Below, in pieces: positions 2,529 through 61,519 of a stretch of 64,000 nt of DNA. The stretch's first letter is position 1; each line of letters begins with the position of its first letter. Under the pieces are notes generated by a model. It saw nothing but the letters and a program-made list of their open reading frames with translations. It was not told the origin of the DNA and did no database searches. Source of the stretch: Escherichia phage JN02; the sequence record MT782071.1. The stretch is one strand, 5' to 3'. The position numbers were made by a program, and so were the translations under genes.

Positions 2529-3629
2529 TTACGCTGTGAAGATTTTATCCCACATCGCAACAACTGCATCTCGATTATACTTCTTCCATACTGCTTCAGC
2601 ACGTTTAACTCGAGCTTCGTACGTGTCAGTGAATTCTAATACAGCTTTTGTGTAAAGCGCAACTACTTCTTTCTTAGGAGTAGAGGAATCAATTTCTACA
2701 CGCACAGTATCTGGGTCGTATTCGAATGTCGCATGAGGATAATCCTTAAAAACTAACTGGATTACAGGGACACCTTTAGAGATGGCTTCAATAGAACTAT
2801 TCTCTACCGTACCTGTGTCAGGACACGTATTAATAAGTGCTTTAGCTGTTTTAAGACGTTCCATGATTTCACTGTGTGGAGCATCAATAATAACAGGATA
2901 TTTAGCTGGTGGTGCCCATTTACTAGGACAGTATCCTACACCATTTTCGCCTAGTGCTTTAATCGCTTCAAGAGCAACATCAGTGCGACGCATTTTAGTG
3001 TCATAACGTTGTGCACTAATAATCAAATCAGTCGCCGGAAGAACTTCAGGTTTTTCAGTCAAACAAATAACCGGATAATCTTCGGCTTCAAACAACGGAT
3101 TTGCTCGCCAATAATCATAATCAATTTTGTCAGTCAGACCTGAAGTCATATAACAATATTTGCGTTCAAATTCACGGAAGGCTTTAGTGGGAGCATAACT
3201 CTTACCACCATTCTTATGAATTTGAATAGTCTGATCCCAAATTTGAACAATGCCACGAGATACCGGTTCAAATGGTGTTGCCATAAAATTCTTATGAACT
3301 TTAGAGAGACCTGCGTCTTTAATTGCCTGAACGGTTAGTTTAGTCGGTTCCATAGTAACAACAAAATCGTATTCATGGATGCCGGCTAGTTCAACAATCT
3401 TACGAGCCATAGTATAACTCATACCTAGACTGAATTTAGTCAGATGTCCAACAGGGTGGTGTGTAACTTTCCAGTCACCAAACATGTCATTATCAAAACC
3501 GATATAATCAATATCAGCACCAATAGAAACTAAATATTTCAACACATTTAAATGTACTGCTTCAAGGCCACCTTGTACACGGTCAGGATTAAATGGGACT
3601 GCGCGAGATGGGATAAACATAACTTTCAT
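2529..3629 (-). CDS. GT-B fold glycosyltransferase (GT4-like), candidate DNA sugar transferase
   Basis: 366 aa; N-terminal MKVMFIPS...GGLE and C-terminal TGTVENSSIEAISKGVPVI resemble GT4 donor-binding motifs; occupies the T4 gene 60/mobA position. Confidence 0.6.
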   Translation of the reverse strand: MKVMFIPSRAVPFNPDRVQGGLEAVHLNVLKYLVSIGADIDYIGFDNDMFGDWKVTHHPVGHLTKFSLGMSYTMARKIVELAGIHEYDFVVTMEPTKLTVQAIKDAGLSKVHKNFMATPFEPVSRGIVQIWDQTIQIHKNGGKSYAPTKAFREFERKYCYMTSGLTDKIDYDYWRANPLFEAEDYPVICLTEKPEVLPATDLIISAQRYDTKMRRTDVALEAIKALGENGVGYCPSKWAPPAKYPVIIDAPHSEIMERLKTAKALINTCPDTGTVENSSIEAISKGVPVIQLVFKDYPHATFEYDPDTVRVEIDSSTPKKEVVALYTKAVLEFTDTYEARVKRAEAVWKKYNRDAVVAMWDKIFTA

Positions 3630-6845: not shown

Positions 6846-6857
6846 AGTTGTTGTACA

Positions 6858-7382
6858 TCATTTTAGCAAAATAAAATCAACTTGTTCTGCCAATGAACGT
6901 CTAAACATTAATTGACAACTTCCGAGGATGAAATCAGGTGCTTCATAGACCGCGATGTAGTATCCTTTAGCTTTCAAGAGTTCAACATCCACCTGGTCAT
7001 CAAACCATGCATAAACCGCGTCAACACTTTCAAATCCAAAATAGAACCCTTTAGCCCAATCTTCACTCAATTCAAATGTGTGCTCAATTCTATAGTATCT
7101 TAAGATATTTTGTTCAAGGAGTTTGTCTTCATTTACTGTAGGACGATTAGGGACATTATAGTTGTCGCCGTGATGGTAGAAGTTACCTGAGAGTATTCCA
7201 TGCTTATCAAGGAACTCCCATGTTTCTTCAGAGTTGTCGGTGCCCGACCAACCGTACGGCGAACGAGGTTCTTTATTCCAAGAGGTTTCCCAAATTCTGA
7301 CGGCTTTACCGTCTTCGATAGCAATTCCTGGTAATGATTCACGTTGAGTACAAAAACTACGTTCTACGCGGTAAACTAACAT
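6858..7382 (-). CDS. hypothetical protein
   Basis: 174-aa ORF with GGAGAA RBS; early promoter cassette upstream. Confidence 0.4.
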   Translation of the reverse strand: MLVYRVERSFCTQRESLPGIAIEDGKAVRIWETSWNKEPRSPYGWSGTDNSEETWEFLDKHGILSGNFYHHGDNYNVPNRPTVNEDKLLEQNILRYYRIEHTFELSEDWAKGFYFGFESVDAVYAWFDDQVDVELLKAKGYYIAVYEAPDFILGSCQLMFRRSLAEQVDFILLK

Positions 7383-7389
7383 ATTATTC

Positions 7390-7437
7390 TCCTCTGGTTG
7401 ATATGGTTATAATATCAAAACCAGAGGAGAAGTAAAC
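7390..7437 (-). promoter_or_regulatory. early sigma70-type promoter with inverted repeat (PeSL-like cassette)
   Basis: minus strand GTTTAC -35, 17-nt spacer, TATTAT -10; inverted repeat cctctggtt/aaccagagg with proximal arm covering the RBS. Confidence 0.5.
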
Positions 7438-7441
7438 AACT

Positions 7442-7861
7442 TTATGCGAAAGCAGCCGGGCTATATTTTTTAATTTGGAATTCAGGAACTACCATGAACT
7501 GTCCAGCGAAAACGATGTTATAAAGCTTAACACCATCTTCTACCCAACGGTCGCTAATAAATCCAGCGATTTGCTTAGTTTTCCACGGCGTTCCATCAGT
7601 TGCCGCAGCAATAGTGAATTCATGGTCTTTTTCAACAGAAACTGATCTGCATAGTCCCCATTTGAACGCTTTTTCTTCTGGTTCAATGAATTGGCTTGAG
7701 ACGTAGCCAATATTACCATTAGCATCACGAACTTTAACTTGGTTACGGCCAAAAACCGGATCACTCACAGAAAGAACTTCAACCAACTTCCCGGCAACTT
7801 TAGAGCGAGAAGCAACAGATACATATACGTAATCACCTGTAGAGAGATTTACAATATTCAT
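7442..7861 (-). CDS. hypothetical protein, member of tandem paralog triplet
   Basis: 139 aa; shares C-terminal motif DRWVEDGVKLYNIVFAGQFMVV with the two upstream ORFs. Confidence 0.45.
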   Translation of the reverse strand: MNIVNLSTGDYVYVSVASRSKVAGKLVEVLSVSDPVFGRNQVKVRDANGNIGYVSSQFIEPEEKAFKWGLCRSVSVEKDHEFTIAAATDGTPWKTKQIAGFISDRWVEDGVKLYNIVFAGQFMVVPEFQIKKYSPAAFA

Positions 7862-7870
7862 AATAATTCC

Positions 7871-8398
7871 TTAAGCTTTACGAGGAGACACATAGCGAGT
7901 GATTTCAGATTCTTTAACAACTCGGAAGTCACCTAAGAATACGATATTGTATAACTTTTCACCATCTTCAACCCATTGGTCACTAATGAAGCCACACATA
8001 ATATCAGTTTTGCTTGGATATCCGTATTCGTCGATGTAATCAAATTCTTTATCGGTCTGGAATTCAACGCCTTTGCAAAGGGCCCATTTAAACTGTGTAG
8101 TAGGCTCAACGATATCGTTTGAAGCAAATTGGACTCGTATATGTTTTTCAAGGAATTTAGGACTTACGTAAGCATACTGGGCATCTTGTCCGCCAAAACT
8201 AGGAATGATTCGAACTTTAACTTCTTTAATACGTCCCATGCCATTTGTGCGAAGTCCGACAACTTCAACCAGACGACCTGCGGCTTTAGACCGGGATGCA
8301 GTTGATACACGTTTAATTTCACCAATAGTAATCATAATTTTTCTCTCTTTGTTTAAGTTGAATTCATTATACTCCATCCATCCTTGGATGTACAACAT
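7871..8398 (-). CDS. hypothetical protein, member of tandem paralog triplet
   Basis: 175 aa; motif DQWVEDGEKLYNIVFLGDFRVV. Confidence 0.45.
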   Translation of the reverse strand: MLYIQGWMEYNEFNLNKERKIMITIGEIKRVSTASRSKAAGRLVEVVGLRTNGMGRIKEVKVRIIPSFGGQDAQYAYVSPKFLEKHIRVQFASNDIVEPTTQFKWALCKGVEFQTDKEFDYIDEYGYPSKTDIMCGFISDQWVEDGEKLYNIVFLGDFRVVKESEITRYVSPRKA

Positions 8399-8934
8399 TA
8401 ATTTAGAATATTAACTACTGCACTACGTGGAACCACACTAAAGTCACCGGCATGAACAACGTTCAGAAGTTCAACCCCGTCTTCAATCCACTGGTCAGTT
8501 ACCCAGCCACTTACCGGTCCAGCGAATGGTCGACGAATTGAAACTGCTTTACACAACAAGTCTGTAGGCTCAATAGGCTTAATCAGAGTACCGTACATAC
8601 AAGCGATATCCATATCAAAGTGGAGACCATCTTTAACAGGTGCTTCTTCAATCAACAGTTCAAAGTCGGTGCTTGGAAGGGCGGTAGTAGAAATTGTACC
8701 GTATGAATTTTTAATTTCTAAGAATAACCAAGGGCCTTCAACTTGTTTGATGAAGTTAACAATAGTGAAACTATTACCTTGAGTGGCACCTAAAATTTCA
8801 CAAAACTTTTCATAAGCTCGCACTGAAGCACCGTACCAGTTGATTTGTTTTTCGTCTTTCAGGATGTAAGTAGCCGTAGTATTGATATTCATAATGTTTT
8901 CCTGTTTGGTTAAGATAGAAAGATTATACTCCAA
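8398..8934 (-). CDS. hypothetical protein, member of tandem paralog triplet
   Basis: 178 aa; motif DQWIEDGVELLNVVHAGDFSVV. Confidence 0.45.
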   Translation of the reverse strand: MEYNLSILTKQENIMNINTTATYILKDEKQINWYGASVRAYEKFCEILGATQGNSFTIVNFIKQVEGPWLFLEIKNSYGTISTTALPSTDFELLIEEAPVKDGLHFDMDIACMYGTLIKPIEPTDLLCKAVSIRRPFAGPVSGWVTDQWIEDGVELLNVVHAGDFSVVPRSAVVNILN

Positions 8935-8954
8935 CCATCCTTGGTTGTAAACTG
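8908..8954 (-). repeat. 46-bp promoter cassette, copy 1 (near-identical to 50301..50346)
   Basis: gttaagatagaaagattatactccaaccatccttggttgtaaactg; minus strand gives GTTTAC -35, inverted repeat caacca/tggttg, TATAAT -10. Confidence 0.6.
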
Positions 8955-8957
8955 GTT

Positions 8958-9635
8958 TTATCGCTGTTTTACACTTAACGGGTCAGGATTCTCAGGGACA
9001 TCTTCAAGGCCAAGCGCATAACGCTGAGCGTATTTTAACATCAAAATATCTTTAGCACAATCATGAATACTATCATGGGCAACGAATCCTTTTAGCGTAC
9101 CCATCGGTAATGGACACATACTTAATCCTCGTGTCAACGAGTAAGCTTCGATTGCCGTACGAATATCGCGTTGAGCCCAGAATTTAACCGGTTCTAATTT
9201 ATCAGTATCAATCTCGGGTTCAAGAACACCTTCATCACGATAGAGGTCACGAATCAAATCGACCAAGATCGGGAAGTCAAAGCTCATACCACGGCACCAC
9301 ATCTGTGATTTCCATTGGTCAACTTTATTAGCTCGGCAATAATCTAAAAAGATTTTAATACCTTCAAGCGTAGTGACATCGTCTTCAGACGGAGCCAAGT
9401 TTTTACGCGCTTCAGCCGATTGTTCTTTCCACCATTTCATAGTGGATTTAGCGAAAACTCGCTTCCCTTTCTGAGAAGCTAAATTAAATTTAATTCGCTT
9501 ACCTCGTTGAACAAGTTCTTCAAATGATTCAACAACTTCAGGGTCGGAATTATATGCAATAACCGCAAGGTCAATAACAGCCGCTTTTGATGTATTGCCG
9601 AATGTTTCAAAATCTATAATAACATCAGTGCTCAT
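8958..9635 (-). CDS. dexA: exonuclease A (DEDD 3'-5' exonuclease)
   Basis: 225 aa; IIDFETFG...AVIDLAVIA and GFVAHDSIHDCAKDILM match T4 DexA as recalled. Confidence 0.85.
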   Translation of the reverse strand: MSTDVIIDFETFGNTSKAAVIDLAVIAYNSDPEVVESFEELVQRGKRIKFNLASQKGKRVFAKSTMKWWKEQSAEARKNLAPSEDDVTTLEGIKIFLDYCRANKVDQWKSQMWCRGMSFDFPILVDLIRDLYRDEGVLEPEIDTDKLEPVKFWAQRDIRTAIEAYSLTRGLSMCPLPMGTLKGFVAHDSIHDCAKDILMLKYAQRYALGLEDVPENPDPLSVKQR

Positions 9636-20300: not shown

Positions 20301-20352
20301 GTTCTCCAGTAGTTGATAGGTCTATAATAACACAACTACTGGAGAAGTAAAC
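20301..20352 (-). promoter_or_regulatory. early promoter with inverted repeat (PeSL-like)
   Basis: minus strand GTTTAC, 17 nt, TATTAT; IR ctccagtagttg/caactactggag with proximal arm containing the RBS. Confidence 0.5.
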
Positions 20353-49031: not shown

Positions 49032-49336
49032 TATAATGTTCTCTCAAATTTGTGGAAGCATTTACGGCATTTCAATTTCAAGTTATCAGTAGTCCAGTTA
49101 ACCAGTTGGACTTGGATAGTTCCACATTCCGGGCATGGATGTTTTGCTGCCGATTTGGCAGCATTTTCACGTCGTTCAACCATTTTCATGATTTCGTTCC
49201 ATACCGGAGGAACGAACTCTTCTTCACCGTGGATTTTATCTCGCTGAACAAATTCAATCTTTGAACTATCGTCAATAAACTTAACCAAGCCATGATTAGT
49301 GCTCATATCAATATCCTCTAAAAGACGTAGTTTCAT
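49031..49336 (-). CDS. zinc-ribbon protein
   Basis: 101 aa; CPECG...CRKC. Confidence 0.4.
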   Translation of the reverse strand: MKLRLLEDIDMSTNHGLVKFIDDSSKIEFVQRDKIHGEEEFVPPVWNEIMKMVERRENAAKSAAKHPCPECGTIQVQLVNWTTDNLKLKCRKCFHKFERTL

Positions 49337-50286
49337 TATAACACCTCAATGGCATTTCGTAAACCATCCGCTTTTGCATTCAGAGCTTTTAATGATTTAG
49401 TTTGTTCTGCAATCTGGGCTTCGACTTCTTTCAGACGAGATTTGAGATATTCGCGTTCTTCTCTTAAGTTATCAACTTTTTCTACTTTAGGTTCTTTAAT
49501 AGACTTAGGTTTATACGTATTAGGGTTCTTCAGCTTAATTTTAATACGAGAACTGAATAACATTGAACCGTTATCTTCGGTTTCGTCATACATTTCTACT
49601 ACGTCCATGATTTTTAACATCATACGAAGTTTATAAGACAGCGAACGAACGGTTTTGTTGTGCTTATTAATTTCTTCGGCTTTCATTGTACCGAGATTAC
49701 GTGAGTAGTAATAAGGAACCTGGATATCAATTGACAATGATGCGTTACCATTGCCAGTTGGTTTGAATACTGCAGTAACCCAATCCTTAACATGAACCGT
49801 ATTTGTACGGTCATCGCCGCCTGTGAATAATTTACGTGAATGTTTAAAAAGCATATTCACTTGGTTATTGAATTCACACGCAAATTTATCAGCAAATTTA
49901 GTTTCAGGAATGGTAGATAACCAATCAGCTAAATGAGTCTTTTTAACATCGTTAATAATAGTAAATTCAACCAAATCAGTTTTAGATGTCACAGATTTAA
50001 TAAAGCTTGGCTTCATAAAGTTTTTAATGTTATCACGAGCCACAGTAGAAGATAATAAACGAGAACGTTTAAACCATTGAAGCAGCGTCCCTAATGAATG
50101 AGAATACGCATTCTGAGTATCTTTACAGATATGATTTTCTTGACCTGTGTATGTACCAAAATCTCTAAGAATACCACTTACTACATTTCGGTGTGGAACA
50201 TCAAATCCTAATGAACCGGAAGCACGTTGGGCATGAACGTTAGCGATAAGACCTGCAAAATAATCAATGTAATGTGAACGTGTCAT
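49336..50286 (-). CDS. hypothetical protein with C-terminal coiled coil
   Basis: 316 aa; C-terminal heptad-rich segment LREEREYLKSRLKEVEAQIAEQTKSLKAL. Confidence 0.4.
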   Translation of the reverse strand: MTRSHYIDYFAGLIANVHAQRASGSLGFDVPHRNVVSGILRDFGTYTGQENHICKDTQNAYSHSLGTLLQWFKRSRLLSSTVARDNIKNFMKPSFIKSVTSKTDLVEFTIINDVKKTHLADWLSTIPETKFADKFACEFNNQVNMLFKHSRKLFTGGDDRTNTVHVKDWVTAVFKPTGNGNASLSIDIQVPYYYSRNLGTMKAEEINKHNKTVRSLSYKLRMMLKIMDVVEMYDETEDNGSMLFSSRIKIKLKNPNTYKPKSIKEPKVEKVDNLREEREYLKSRLKEVEAQIAEQTKSLKALNAKADGLRNAIEVL

Positions 50287-50300
50287 AATATTTTCCTCTC

Positions 50301-50346
50301 GTTAAGATAGAAAGATTATACTCCAACCATCCTTGGTTGTAAACTG
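50301..50346 (-). repeat. 46-bp promoter cassette, copy 2 (near-identical to 8908..8954)
   Basis: same 46-mer gttaagatagaaagattatactccaaccatccttggttgtaaactg; early promoter with inverted repeat. Confidence 0.6.
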
Positions 50347-50348
50347 AT

Positions 50349-51284
50349 TTATGGTTTTAATGCATTCATTGCGTTAAAAAGTTTAGAGTACTGCAACTGG
50401 AGCTTGGTAACTACTTGTTGAGCATCACGAAGCTTAGCTTGTGCTTTGTCAAGTTCAACAGACAGTTGGTCCATAGTGGCCTTGATTTGATTATAATAGT
50501 AATCTTCGGCAGGAAGAAGACCGTTAGAGATTTCCAGTTTAGTCGACGGTGAAGTGTATATAGATGGAGCAGTAAAATATGCACCTAGAACTTCAGCATT
50601 GCCAATTGGGGTTGCAGTAATTGACGCTTCGAAATTTGCATTTTCCTTTTTAAGATTTTGATAGTATTCAGAGTCTTTGTGCCACCATGGCGCAGGAACC
50701 TTTTTACCAATAGATACACGGGCCTGGATAGCGATATGGCCCTTATTCTTGATAGGGTTGATAATATTAAGCTCACGAGAATAAATTGCTTTAATCTGGT
50801 GAATATTATCACCTAACACTTCCAACGCTTGGTGGAATACACGAGCAACGTTATCATTCTTAGGTTTATACGTAAGAGTGAACTCGTTCTCACTGATAAC
50901 CATGATTTCTAACTTATCGTAAGTATATTTCAAATGTTTCATGTTAATTGCTTGAGGACGAATACGAGAAGCAATGGCCATCAGATTGTTAAGGTTATTC
51001 CGGAACTGCTTAGCGAAATATTGTCCTTCACCGCCAATACAAAAATTACGAAGTTTCTGTTTGGCTAATAAACGGCTGAACTCACCATTTTTAATGAACT
51101 CTTTAACGGGTGTGTTAGTAACGCATTCAAATTGAGTAAACTTACGAGAAGTAATCCCATAATATGAACAGATTTCCTCAATCTCTTCAGGAGTCTTTAC
51201 AGGCATACGGATAGGATTAGGACCTGGAGTATATGCGTTCGAGGTAAATTCTTTGATAAGTTCTCTACGTGTAATAAAAGCCAT
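50349..51284 (-). CDS. hypothetical protein with C-terminal coiled coil
   Basis: 311 aa; C-terminal MDQLSVELDKAQAKLRDAQQVVTKLQLQ. Confidence 0.4.
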   Translation of the reverse strand: MAFITRRELIKEFTSNAYTPGPNPIRMPVKTPEEIEEICSYYGITSRKFTQFECVTNTPVKEFIKNGEFSRLLAKQKLRNFCIGGEGQYFAKQFRNNLNNLMAIASRIRPQAINMKHLKYTYDKLEIMVISENEFTLTYKPKNDNVARVFHQALEVLGDNIHQIKAIYSRELNIINPIKNKGHIAIQARVSIGKKVPAPWWHKDSEYYQNLKKENANFEASITATPIGNAEVLGAYFTAPSIYTSPSTKLEISNGLLPAEDYYYNQIKATMDQLSVELDKAQAKLRDAQQVVTKLQLQYSKLFNAMNALKP

Positions 51285-51310: not shown

Positions 51311-51340
51311 ATTATACTCCAACCATCCTTGGTTGTACAT
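51311..51340 (-). promoter_or_regulatory. early promoter with inverted repeat (variant of the 46-bp cassette)
   Basis: attatactccaaccatccttggttgtaca; minus-strand -35 GTTGTACA-like, -10 TATAAT. Confidence 0.45.
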
Positions 51341-52335
51341 CATTCCTTAAGAAGTTTTACTACCTGAATAAGATTAGCTCGTTCTGTTTTATTTTTACTG
51401 TTTAAGCCTGCTAATCGTGAGATTTCATCGTCAGTCTGTTGAATAGTTACATTAAGTTCGTTAATCAAAGCTTCAAAGTATTTGATTTGCTCAGCATGTT
51501 TTGATTCAAATTTCTGAACCGGAATAACGTCTTGGTTCAGTTCATCAATAAGGTCTTTAAGAGCATCTTCTTGGTTGATATCATATTCAACTTCTTTTAT
51601 TTCTTCAACGAGCTCGTCTTTATATCTAACGTCTTTTAGTCCTGGAGCTGGTCCTGAAATCTCTTCTTTAAGAGTACAAACATATACATTACGGTATCTA
51701 ATGCCGTCTCGCTTGATATCAACTTCGTCAATAAATCCACAATGTTTAAGTCCAGAGCCGATTATGTCAAAATATCCTTGACGTTGTCCTTCAAACGTTA
51801 CACGAACTACTAAGACAGTTTTGCCACCAACCTTTTGAAGCTCACATTTATAAAAGTCTGTTGAACCTGAATAACGTGGATGAGTTTTAAAGTTCATCTG
51901 ACGATCTAGGCCCATTTGTAAGCGTGCTGATACGGCCATAAAACGTGTTTGGTTCTCGTTAAGATGAGCAACAATCCGTTTCAAAGGCATTTTACCCTGT
52001 TCACGACCGAACAAATCAGTACGTCCTAGATTACGCAGGATGTTGTTAGAGTTAATCATCGACAGAACGTTAAGTTTATTCAGCGCGCTGAAGATTCCAT
52101 CGGCCATTGATTTTCCGTAACCTTTACACGCTTTAATAAGCGCTCGCGGTAGATTAGTATAGATTTCAGACGGCATATGAAAATCAAATTTACTAGTCAA
52201 TAATTGATGAACTTGGATAGCAATTTGCTCATAATTAAGTGCTCTGCGATCGTTATGGTCTTTAAACCACACTTTAATCTGTGAAGCACATAAACCGTTA
52301 ATTTCATGTTTTACCGCATCAGATGTAATGCTCAT
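51340..52335 (-). CDS. hypothetical protein with C-terminal coiled coil
   Basis: 331 aa; C-terminal IKYFEALINELNVTIQQTDDEISRLAGL. Confidence 0.4.
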   Translation of the reverse strand: MSITSDAVKHEINGLCASQIKVWFKDHNDRRALNYEQIAIQVHQLLTSKFDFHMPSEIYTNLPRALIKACKGYGKSMADGIFSALNKLNVLSMINSNNILRNLGRTDLFGREQGKMPLKRIVAHLNENQTRFMAVSARLQMGLDRQMNFKTHPRYSGSTDFYKCELQKVGGKTVLVVRVTFEGQRQGYFDIIGSGLKHCGFIDEVDIKRDGIRYRNVYVCTLKEEISGPAPGLKDVRYKDELVEEIKEVEYDINQEDALKDLIDELNQDVIPVQKFESKHAEQIKYFEALINELNVTIQQTDDEISRLAGLNSKNKTERANLIQVVKLLKE

Positions 52336-52397: not shown

Positions 52398-52925
52398 TTA
52401 TGCGTGAACCGTCTTTAAACGTTCTTCAAATTTCCGAAGAGTACTAATACGTTCTGCTTTCTGTTTTGTATAGTTTGCAATACGTTCTGAAGTGAGAGCG
52501 TATCGTTCATTTACTGTTTCTTTCATGAAGTCAGGGATTTCACGAGAAGCTTTAATTTCATCAAACTTATCGAGTACTGCCTGGTCTTCAGCGATTAAAT
52601 TTTCGTACATCTCGATATCTTTCTTGATAAACTCGATATCTTCCTGGGTTACTTTGGATAAACGAGATGCTTTATCCTTTTTGTACTGCTCGTTAGTTTC
52701 ACGAGACCAGAATAATGTACGTTTTTTGTTAGTGTTTTTGTAGACTTCCACAATTCCAACTGAATCGATGATAACAATCCAATTCCAACGAGATTTGAAA
52801 ATCTGACCTCCGTCCACGGTAATCTCGTTACCATAAGCAACGTCATTAAAGAACTTGCTTTGTGCTTCAGATTTAAATTTACCGTCGTTATAATTTACCA
52901 GGTTGAAAATATCTTTAGCGTTCAT
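52398..52925 (-). CDS. hypothetical protein
   Basis: 175-aa ORF with GGAGGT RBS. Confidence 0.4.
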   Translation of the reverse strand: MNAKDIFNLVNYNDGKFKSEAQSKFFNDVAYGNEITVDGGQIFKSRWNWIVIIDSVGIVEVYKNTNKKRTLFWSRETNEQYKKDKASRLSKVTQEDIEFIKKDIEMYENLIAEDQAVLDKFDEIKASREIPDFMKETVNERYALTSERIANYTKQKAERISTLRKFEERLKTVHA

Positions 52926-52930
52926 GTTTT

Positions 52931-52981
52931 ACCTCCAGTAGTTGATAGGTCTATAATAACATAACCATAGACCTTGTAAAC
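52931..52981 (-). promoter_or_regulatory. early promoter with inverted repeat around -10
   Basis: minus strand GTTTAC, spacer, TATTAT; IR aggtctat/atagacct. Confidence 0.45.
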
Positions 52982-52983
52982 AA

Positions 52984-53271
52984 CTAAAAGAAACTTTTTT
53001 CGGTATTTTTTCCACTGAACCAAACCGACTTCGGGACTTTCTGTAATTTTTCGGATTTAAGTTTCTCTTCCTGTTCTTTCTTATATGCATCCTTGTCGTA
53101 CTGGAACAACTCTAGGGCATTCTTTTGCAGACGGTCTAAGGTAATTAAGGCTTTAGTTTTTCCTTTCAAGGAAGAGTCCTGGCGAACCTCCTCGCTATAT
53201 TGCATCGTAGAACTAACCATACGATGAGCATACAGTTCAACTGCGGCTTTAATTTTTTGCATAAAATCCAT
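52984..53271 (-). CDS. hypothetical protein
   Basis: 95-aa ORF. Confidence 0.35.
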   Translation of the reverse strand: MDFMQKIKAAVELYAHRMVSSTMQYSEEVRQDSSLKGKTKALITLDRLQKNALELFQYDKDAYKKEQEEKLKSEKLQKVPKSVWFSGKNTEKSFF

Positions 53272-61462: not shown

Positions 61463-61470
61463 TTTGATTT

Positions 61471-61519
61471 CTCCTCTAGTTGACAGGTCTATAGTAACAC
61501 AACTAGAGGAGAAGTAAAC
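61471..61519 (-). promoter_or_regulatory. early promoter with inverted repeat (PeSL-like) upstream of regB
   Basis: minus strand GTTTAC, spacer, TACTAT; IR ctcctctagttg/caactagaggag, proximal arm contains the RBS. Confidence 0.5.

Follow-up and report, generated by a model that had tools for sequence, protein, structure and literature searches.

Repeated early promoters as probable joints for the loss of single accessory genes in RB69-like phages

Four closely similar intergenic elements in an RB69-like phage genome are very probably early promoters whose paired direct repeats recombine with one another, such that single genes are excised and an intact hybrid promoter is left in their place. 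Host sigma-70 RNA polymerase would recognise the four copies and start early transcripts for motB, motB.1, nrdC.3 and nrdC.5, and each cassette would serve as a complete expression joint, composed of a stop codon, a -35 hexamer, a 17-nt spacer, a -10 hexamer, a short leader with a Shine-Dalgarno (SD) sequence and an ATG. Because the copies constitute direct repeats around single non-essential genes, the recombination and replication machinery of the phage would be expected to cross over occasionally between two of them. Such a crossover would excise the intervening gene, and the one hybrid promoter that remains would drive the next gene. The anatomy of the cassettes, their positions throughout the genus and the natural deletion alleles in which the flanks switch inside the core can all be read directly from the genomes, as described below.

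The stretch of DNA analysed (64,000 nt, hereafter the window) starts near genome position 1 and is 97-98% identical to Mosigvirus (RB69-like T-even) genomes, for example GADS24, HX01 and PhAPEC2. An exact-match search of the window locates the 46-mer GTTAAGATAGAAAGATTATACTCCAACCATCCTTGGTTGTAAACTG at 8909-8954 and at 50301-50346, and the same search returns zero matches across 100 shuffles. A preliminary description had reported a 46-bp string at two loci about 41 kb apart, which is accurate except that the first copy starts at 8909 rather than at 8908. A 26-nt core, TTATACTCCAACCATCCTTGGTTGTA, is also present exactly at 51312-51337 and with two mismatches at 8367-8392 (0 expected). The copy at 51311-51340 had been called a degenerate variant; it is present, but since its 26-nt core is exact it is not really degenerate over the promoter. 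The related copy noticed near 8365-8397 likewise exists, with its core at 8366-8394. The four copies (A through D) and the genes around them are as follows.

7871-8335, minus strand: motB-like gene, served by copy A
8366-8394, minus strand: predicted promoter core of copy A; -35 TGTACA, N17 spacer TCCAAGGATGGATGGAG, -10 TATAAT; 10/12 consensus positions; motB.1 upstream, motB-like gene downstream
8398-8892, minus strand: motB.1 homologue (164 aa, C-terminal MotB domain), bracketed by copies B and A
8923-8951, minus strand: predicted promoter core of copy B; -35 TTTACA (8951-8946), N17 spacer ACCAAGGATGGTTGGAG, -10 TATAAT (8928-8923); 11/12; between dexA and motB.1; 46-mer at 8909-8954
8958-9635, minus strand: dexA, upstream of copy B
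49336-50286, minus strand: nrdC.3 homologue, served by copy C
50315-50343, minus strand: predicted promoter core of copy C; TTTACA-N17-TATAAT; 11/12; between nrdC.5 and nrdC.3; 46-mer at 50301-50346
50349-51284, minus strand: nrdC.5 homologue (311 aa, DUF7235), bracketed by copies D and C
51311-51339, minus strand: predicted promoter core of copy D; TGTACA-N17-TATAAT; 10/12; abuts the nrdC.6 stop codon, upstream of nrdC.5
51340-52335, minus strand: nrdC.6 homologue, whose stop codon abuts the -35 hexamer of copy D

When read on the minus strand (reverse complement), the repeated sequence takes the form caG-TTTACA-ACCAAGGATGGTTGGAG-TATAAT-ctttctatcttaac, in which the -10 hexamer is perfect. The core spans 26-29 nt. 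In copy A both arms of a palindrome within the spacer are altered (A to T and T to A), and these two changes relative to the other copies are compensating. All four copies occupy short intergenic spaces on the minus (coding) strand, in regions where the genes are encoded on this strand and the neighbours are homologues of T4 early genes. Only 0-6 nt separate the upstream stop codon (of motB.1, dexA, nrdC.5 and nrdC.6 for A, B, C and D, respectively) from the -35 hexamer, with the dexA stop codon lying 6 nt upstream of that of copy B. On the other side, a leader of 26-30 nt, which carries an SD sequence 5-9 nt before the ATG, leads into the motB-like gene (A), motB.1 (B), nrdC.3 (C) or nrdC.5 (D); counted from the -10 hexamer, the ATG follows at 30-36 nt, in agreement with the earlier remark that the string sits just upstream of gene starts.

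Two pairs of direct repeats result from this layout, namely B and A, which are 557 bp apart and bracket motB.1, and D and C, which are 996 bp apart and bracket nrdC.5. The length of the direct repeats ranges from 27 to 46 bp among the copies, and the longest exact runs shared by A and B are only 10-11 nt. At nucleotide level, the similarity between copies stops short of the flanking coding sequence; the repeats are stand-alone intergenic cassettes, as had been proposed, rather than parts of longer duplicated coding segments.

Sequence features indicate that the cassettes are promoters. A consensus scan ranks the four copies as the best sigma-70-like sites of their regions (A 10/12, B 11/12, C 11/12 and D 10/12), and all four combine T4-type early promoter hexamers with N17 spacing and TATAAT. 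Each sits on the coding strand immediately before a gene of the early region that is equipped with an SD sequence of its own. Upstream of the -35 hexamer, around -40 to -44 where UP-like sequence would lie, copies B (gataaaaccag) and C (cataaatcag) are A-rich, and A and D less so; this segment overlaps the end of the upstream coding sequence. A regular-expression scan of the window yields about 20 early-promoter-like sites, all on the minus strand and none on the plus strand, and one common spacer occurs in only these four. The exclusive use of the minus strand by such sites is consistent with a uniformly leftward early region.

Existing predictions agree with this assignment. A hidden Markov model built on the T4 early consensus had yielded, among the predicted early promoters of RB69, Pe:8387, Pe:8947, Pe:51019 and Pe:52042 (Nolan et al. 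2006, PMC1524935, Additional file 3), and these are the positions at which we located the RB69 orthologues of A, B, C and D. The sites in the two studies are thus orthologous, but the published list gives coordinates only and does not note the common spacer, the bracketing of genes or the indels. Copy B is also annotated as a promoter in the GenBank record of SA79RD. From their match to the consensus, the four copies are therefore predicted to be paralogous T4-type early sigma-70 promoters, as the preliminary description had supposed, and it is from this resemblance that we infer their activity and early timing. In RB69 itself, copy A (8339-8465) carries a T-to-C spacer variant, a TATAAA -10 hexamer and a shorter leader, which fits its low HMM score of 6.2 (Nolan et al. 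2006), and motB.1 is annotated there as two ORFs, RB69p012 and RB69p013.

The identity of two 46-nt sequences 41 kb apart had been taken as a sign of recent cassette movement, and a transposition-like event in this genome would account for a match that is exact over 46 nt while the adjacent intergenic bases differ. However, BLAST searches with the B and C cassettes give matches in about 190 Mosigvirus records at no more than four places per genome, and the same four loci are occupied across the genus. Phages of the Dhakavirus genus (the JS98/JS10 group) carry the cassette at a single place, at the equivalent locus, and no copy of this spacer family was detected by BLAST in Tequatrovirus. Pattern scans of IMG/VR, in which four positions of each palindrome arm were left free, and of metagenomes, with one free position per arm, returned 10 loci each, every one of which corresponds to one of the four Mosigvirus loci or to the single Dhakavirus locus, and neither scan revealed a new gene context for the cassette. 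Terminal repeats, target duplications and a transposase are likewise absent. Recent transposition is therefore a very improbable source of the identity. Because RB69 has the same arrangement, with its B and C copies sharing about 47 nt, the cassette is, as judged from these comparisons, old and positionally stable rather than recently moved.

The genes that the repeats bracket are missing cleanly from some relatives. In phages G2469, AV109 and PTE-Eco05, nrdC.5 is absent and the order is nrdC.6, one cassette, nrdC.3. At this junction the upstream flank is that of copy D (69-70 of 70 nt), the downstream flank is that of copy C, and the switch from one to the other falls within the common sequence TACAACCAAGGATGGTTGGAGTATAAT. 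A 180-nt query across the hybrid nrdC.6/nrdC.3 junction aligns contiguously in 21 of 155 Mosigvirus records and is split in the rest, with some phages represented twice in these counts by GenBank and RefSeq entries. The same nrdC.5-less junction is carried by a metagenome contig (L033). The leader alleles that follow the junction differ (ctttc, gaatt, gaacc and gaatc), which suggests either that nrdC.5 was lost in more than one event or that sequences were later exchanged between phages. Elsewhere in one of these genomes, AV109, a homing endonuclease gene is annotated at 7123-7944, where it separates endonuclease VII from nrdD; it is absent from this position in G2469 and PTE-Eco05.

An equivalent loss is evident at the other pair. 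Phages AV115, phi25-307 and PTK lack motB.1 and have the order dexA, one cassette, motB, and a metagenome contig (L030) carries the same dexA/motB hybrid cassette without motB.1. AV115 and PTK have a B-type spacer followed by an A-type leader, which places the crossover in GGAGTATAAT. In phi25-307 a B-type -35 hexamer is followed by an A-type spacer, which places it in or near TACA. There are, then, at least two types of motB.1 junction with different crossover positions. As counted with a coding-sequence query, motB.1 is present in approximately 148 records. The proposal that the repeats are substrates for recombination is thus borne out by relatives that lack exactly the gene between two copies and in which the crossover lies inside the core.

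Every combination of presence and absence is found for the two genes, with both present in the window, only motB.1 in F2, only nrdC.5 in phi25-307 and neither in AV115, and the two losses are therefore independent. Since T4 and Dhakavirus carry the corresponding genes, their presence is presumably ancestral, and the absence of motB.1 or nrdC.5 looks most simply like a derived deletion; it is on this basis that the events are treated here as deletions rather than insertions. Some of the hybrid types could stem from a single deletion and subsequent exchange between phages. The pathway is also best stated conditionally. With exact runs of only 10-11 nt shared by A and B, the motB.1 deletions may reflect microhomology or slippage rather than classical homologous recombination.

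A third indel is bounded by promoters that do not belong to the cassette family. Phage phi25-307 also lacks the motB.2 homologue (near 3414-3574 of the phi25-307 sequence L017; the promoters concerned lie at 6857 and 7436 in the window), and at the junction the upstream half of the motB.2 promoter is joined to the downstream half of the cef promoter, such that the indel is bounded by two early promoters of different sub-families. Bounding by promoters is therefore a general feature of the indels in this region. This third case also bears on the idea that excision of the bracketed genes is the work of a dedicated site-specific recombinase with the palindrome as its recognition site. The palindrome is indeed central in the repeat, and Arbiol et al. 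speculated on a protein of this kind for the stems of promoter-early stem-loops (PMC2839356). However, the joined promoters of the motB.2 indel have no such palindrome, the motB.1 crossovers fall at different positions (one in TACA and one in GGAGTATAAT), and no recombinase candidate is associated with the cassette. We consider the involvement of such an enzyme highly unlikely.

The leaders provide some indication of how the copies may have exchanged sequence. At locus C the leader starts with ctttc in the window, RB69 and AV109, with gaatc in JS09, with gaatt in G2469 and with gaacc in PTE-Eco05. Copy B always has ctttc, and the copy A leader begins with gaatt. Clustered differences at locus C that match a paralogue plausibly represent short gene-conversion patches. 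Because the Dhakavirus orthologue also reads ctttctatc (or ccttttatc), ctttc may be ancestral at locus C and gaatc, gaatt and gaacc derived. A recent conversion of C by B was considered as the source of the 46-nt identity and set aside, given that RB69 has the same B = C leader and that the Dhakavirus orthologue reads ctttctatc.

The C-terminal half of the motB.1 protein matches the MotB domain (PF17613, E = 4e-9), and the neighbouring motB-like protein is 30% identical to motB.1. Because the two genes share this domain, the A/B pair may go back to an old tandem duplication in which a promoter and its gene were copied together. For the C/D pair, an explanation by paralogy was rejected, as nrdC.3 and nrdC.5 have no similarity to each other. 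Three tandem genes of the MotB family, two motB-like genes and motB.1, occupy 7442-8892, and a 49-nt imperfect repeat is found between the two motB-like genes (7775-7823 versus 8261-8309).

Sigma-70 promoter spacers are usually free to vary, and the uniformity of the cassette spacer is not explained by promoter function alone, whether among copies or between genera. Within the spacer, between the -35 and -10 hexamers, lies the inverted repeat CAACCA-agga-TGGTTG, with arms of 6 bp and a loop of 4 nt and with no U-tract. Comparisons within Mosigvirus carry no signal on this matter, since every early promoter is near-invariant at orthologous loci. Comparison with Dhakavirus is more instructive. 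At the single Dhakavirus locus, the proteins on either side of the cassette match nrdC.5 and nrdC.3 at only 20% and 23% identity, and over 4 kb the blastn alignments between the two genera are limited to nrdC.8, a short part of nrdC.2 and an 80-nt island, which is the cassette itself. Within this island the spacers are identical at 15-17 of 17 positions. Two orthologous control promoters exhibit the reverse pattern, in that their flanks are kept (45/55 and 43/55) and their spacers have diverged (6/16 and 9/17).

These findings raise the possibility that the palindromic spacer has a function of its own, and that the likeness of the copies is maintained by purifying selection rather than by recombination. 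The spacer might be an operator bound by a DNA-binding protein of phage or host. Alternatively, read-through transcripts might contain it as an RNA hairpin together with a GGAG processing site, for example one cut by the RegB endoribonuclease. In either case it would mark out a small group of early genes that are regulated together, and this explanation is compatible with recombining promoters rather than exclusive of them. In its favour, spacers are conserved where flanking proteins and DNA are not, the control promoters are reversed, and the variation in the arms consists of a compensatory A-T to T-A swap. One further arm change, a single observation, is the A to G in the 5′ arm of the locus-C copy TTTACAGCCAAGG from metagenome contig OQVL01012178.1 (L024, near position 424), which in RNA would still allow a G-U pair, whereas in DNA the Watson-Crick pairing would be lost. 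However, the hairpin is short, and the four intergenic regions, when folded as RNA, score no better than shuffled sequences (z from -0.4 to +0.3). In 3 of the 8 distinct cores the closing pair is lost through a T-to-C change, and the control promoters number just two. A single covarying pair, which is all that we found, may represent one event or could reflect quasipalindrome-templated mutation. An Rfam search of the whole window found no match. An RNA element or intrinsic terminator was accordingly rejected as a candidate, given the unremarkable folds, the lack of a terminator-like site beside the cassettes and the absence of an Rfam match. We know of no protein that binds the spacer palindrome.

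On balance, selection on a functional spacer as the reason for the likeness of the copies seems unlikely, although it deserves to be kept in mind. The more specific proposal, that the spacer together with the GGAG abutting the hairpin constitutes a regulatory site inside the promoter (an operator or a signal for mRNA processing or stability) that would mark a regulon of motB, motB.1, nrdC.3 and nrdC.5, is somewhat more doubtful still. Alternatively, the spacer may owe its conservation to lateral exchange of the cassette between genera that infect the same cell.

Other spacers in the window also have unusual features. Three further early-promoter-like sites, at 7387-7431, 20302-20346 and 61469-61513 (minus strand), contain a perfect inverted repeat of 13-14 bp (TTCTCC..GTTG / CAAC..GGAGAA), whose 5′ arm lies in the -35/-10 spacer and whose 3′ arm covers the SD GGAG, with the -10 hexamer in the loop. 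Transcripts from the promoters at these sites would have a free SD sequence, and read-through transcripts would have it locked in a hairpin. At the nrdC.8 promoter (52915-53010, compared with Dhakavirus sequence L020, 800-900), the UP region, -35, -10 and leader are conserved and the spacer is completely different. At this site the leader CTACTGGAG is complementary to the spacer of Dhakavirus, TCTCCAGTAG, but not to that of Mosigvirus. This arrangement suggests that spacers may be swapped by crossovers within the hexamers.

The preferred interpretation, that repeated early promoters recombine, has several implications. The more than 150 sequenced RB69-like phages provide a natural example, resolved to the nucleotide, of repeated early promoters that would serve as seamless joints for the loss, and presumably the gain, of single accessory genes, in that every deletion restores an intact promoter to the gene that follows. 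On this basis motB.1, nrdC.5 and motB.2 are the accessory genes predicted to be unstable, a prediction that bears on phage engineering and therapy genomics. The conserved spacer adds a small puzzle to the regulation of early promoters.

The corresponding T4 promoters offer a first point of comparison. At the T4 junctions dexA/motB.2 and motB.1/motB, promoters of the GTTTAC-N17-TAYWAT type are found in the same orientation and gene neighbourhood, but their spacers are unrelated to that of the Mosigvirus cassette. Gene order differs as well, being dexA-motB.2-motB.1-motB in T4 versus dexA-motB.1-motB-motB-like-motB.2 in this phage. In the T4 motB promoter (7130-7305), an inverted repeat GGGACC..GGTCCC brackets AGAGTATAAT and is followed by a second such sequence, GGAGTATAAA; this tandem arrangement of -10-like sequences resembles the 'degraded/slipped' elements of Comeau et al. 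(2014, PMC4122927).

The closest known system is that of the promoter-early stem-loops (PeSLs), which were described for RB49/phi1 (Arbiol et al. 2010, PMC2839356) and later also in PST/T4 and nt-1/KVP40 (Comeau et al. 2014, PMC4122927). Recombination between PeSLs deletes, inserts or swaps ORFs in hyperplastic regions and can release mini-circles (PMC2839356, PMC4122927). As in those phages, the Mosigvirus cassettes are similar, repeated early sigma-70 promoters with an SD sequence and ATG, they occur in hyperplastic early regions around small non-essential genes, and the breakpoints of the indels that separate close relatives fall within the repeats. The cassette also conforms to the consensus published for PST/T4, TTTACW-N17-TAYWAT (Comeau et al. 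2014, PMC4122927), and the promoter, SD sequence and start codon at the 3′ end, the bracketing copies and the indels within the element are all found here.

These shared properties might suggest a canonical PeSL in the strict sense, which is a promoter preceded by a terminator stem-loop that insulates each gene, since there are several copies in hyperplastic early regions, where they adjoin small non-essential genes and mark the sites of indels. In published PeSLs the stem-loop is located just upstream of the -35 hexamer and terminates transcription (PMC2839356, PMC4122927). Here, in contrast, the stop codon 0-6 nt from the -35 hexamer leaves no room for a stem-loop upstream. The only inverted repeat is the 6-bp element inside the spacer, which is not terminator-like, having no U-tract and an unremarkable folding energy, and no terminator-like site on the minus strand adjoins any copy. 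The two systems differ further in that the whole 17-nt spacer is common to the Mosigvirus copies, which number only four per genome. Strict membership is therefore improbable, and the cassette is better regarded, from its sequence features, as PeSL-like in its presumed recombination. Neither of the two PeSL papers (PMC2839356, PMC4122927) deals with RB69-type phages, no mention of RB69 was found there, and among the papers searched we found none linking PeSLs to RB69 or Mosigvirus. PeSL-type shuffling is thus already known, and Mosigvirus is a genus in which it was previously undescribed. The idea is extended here to promoters for which a terminator stem-loop would not be required in order to play a role in recombination.
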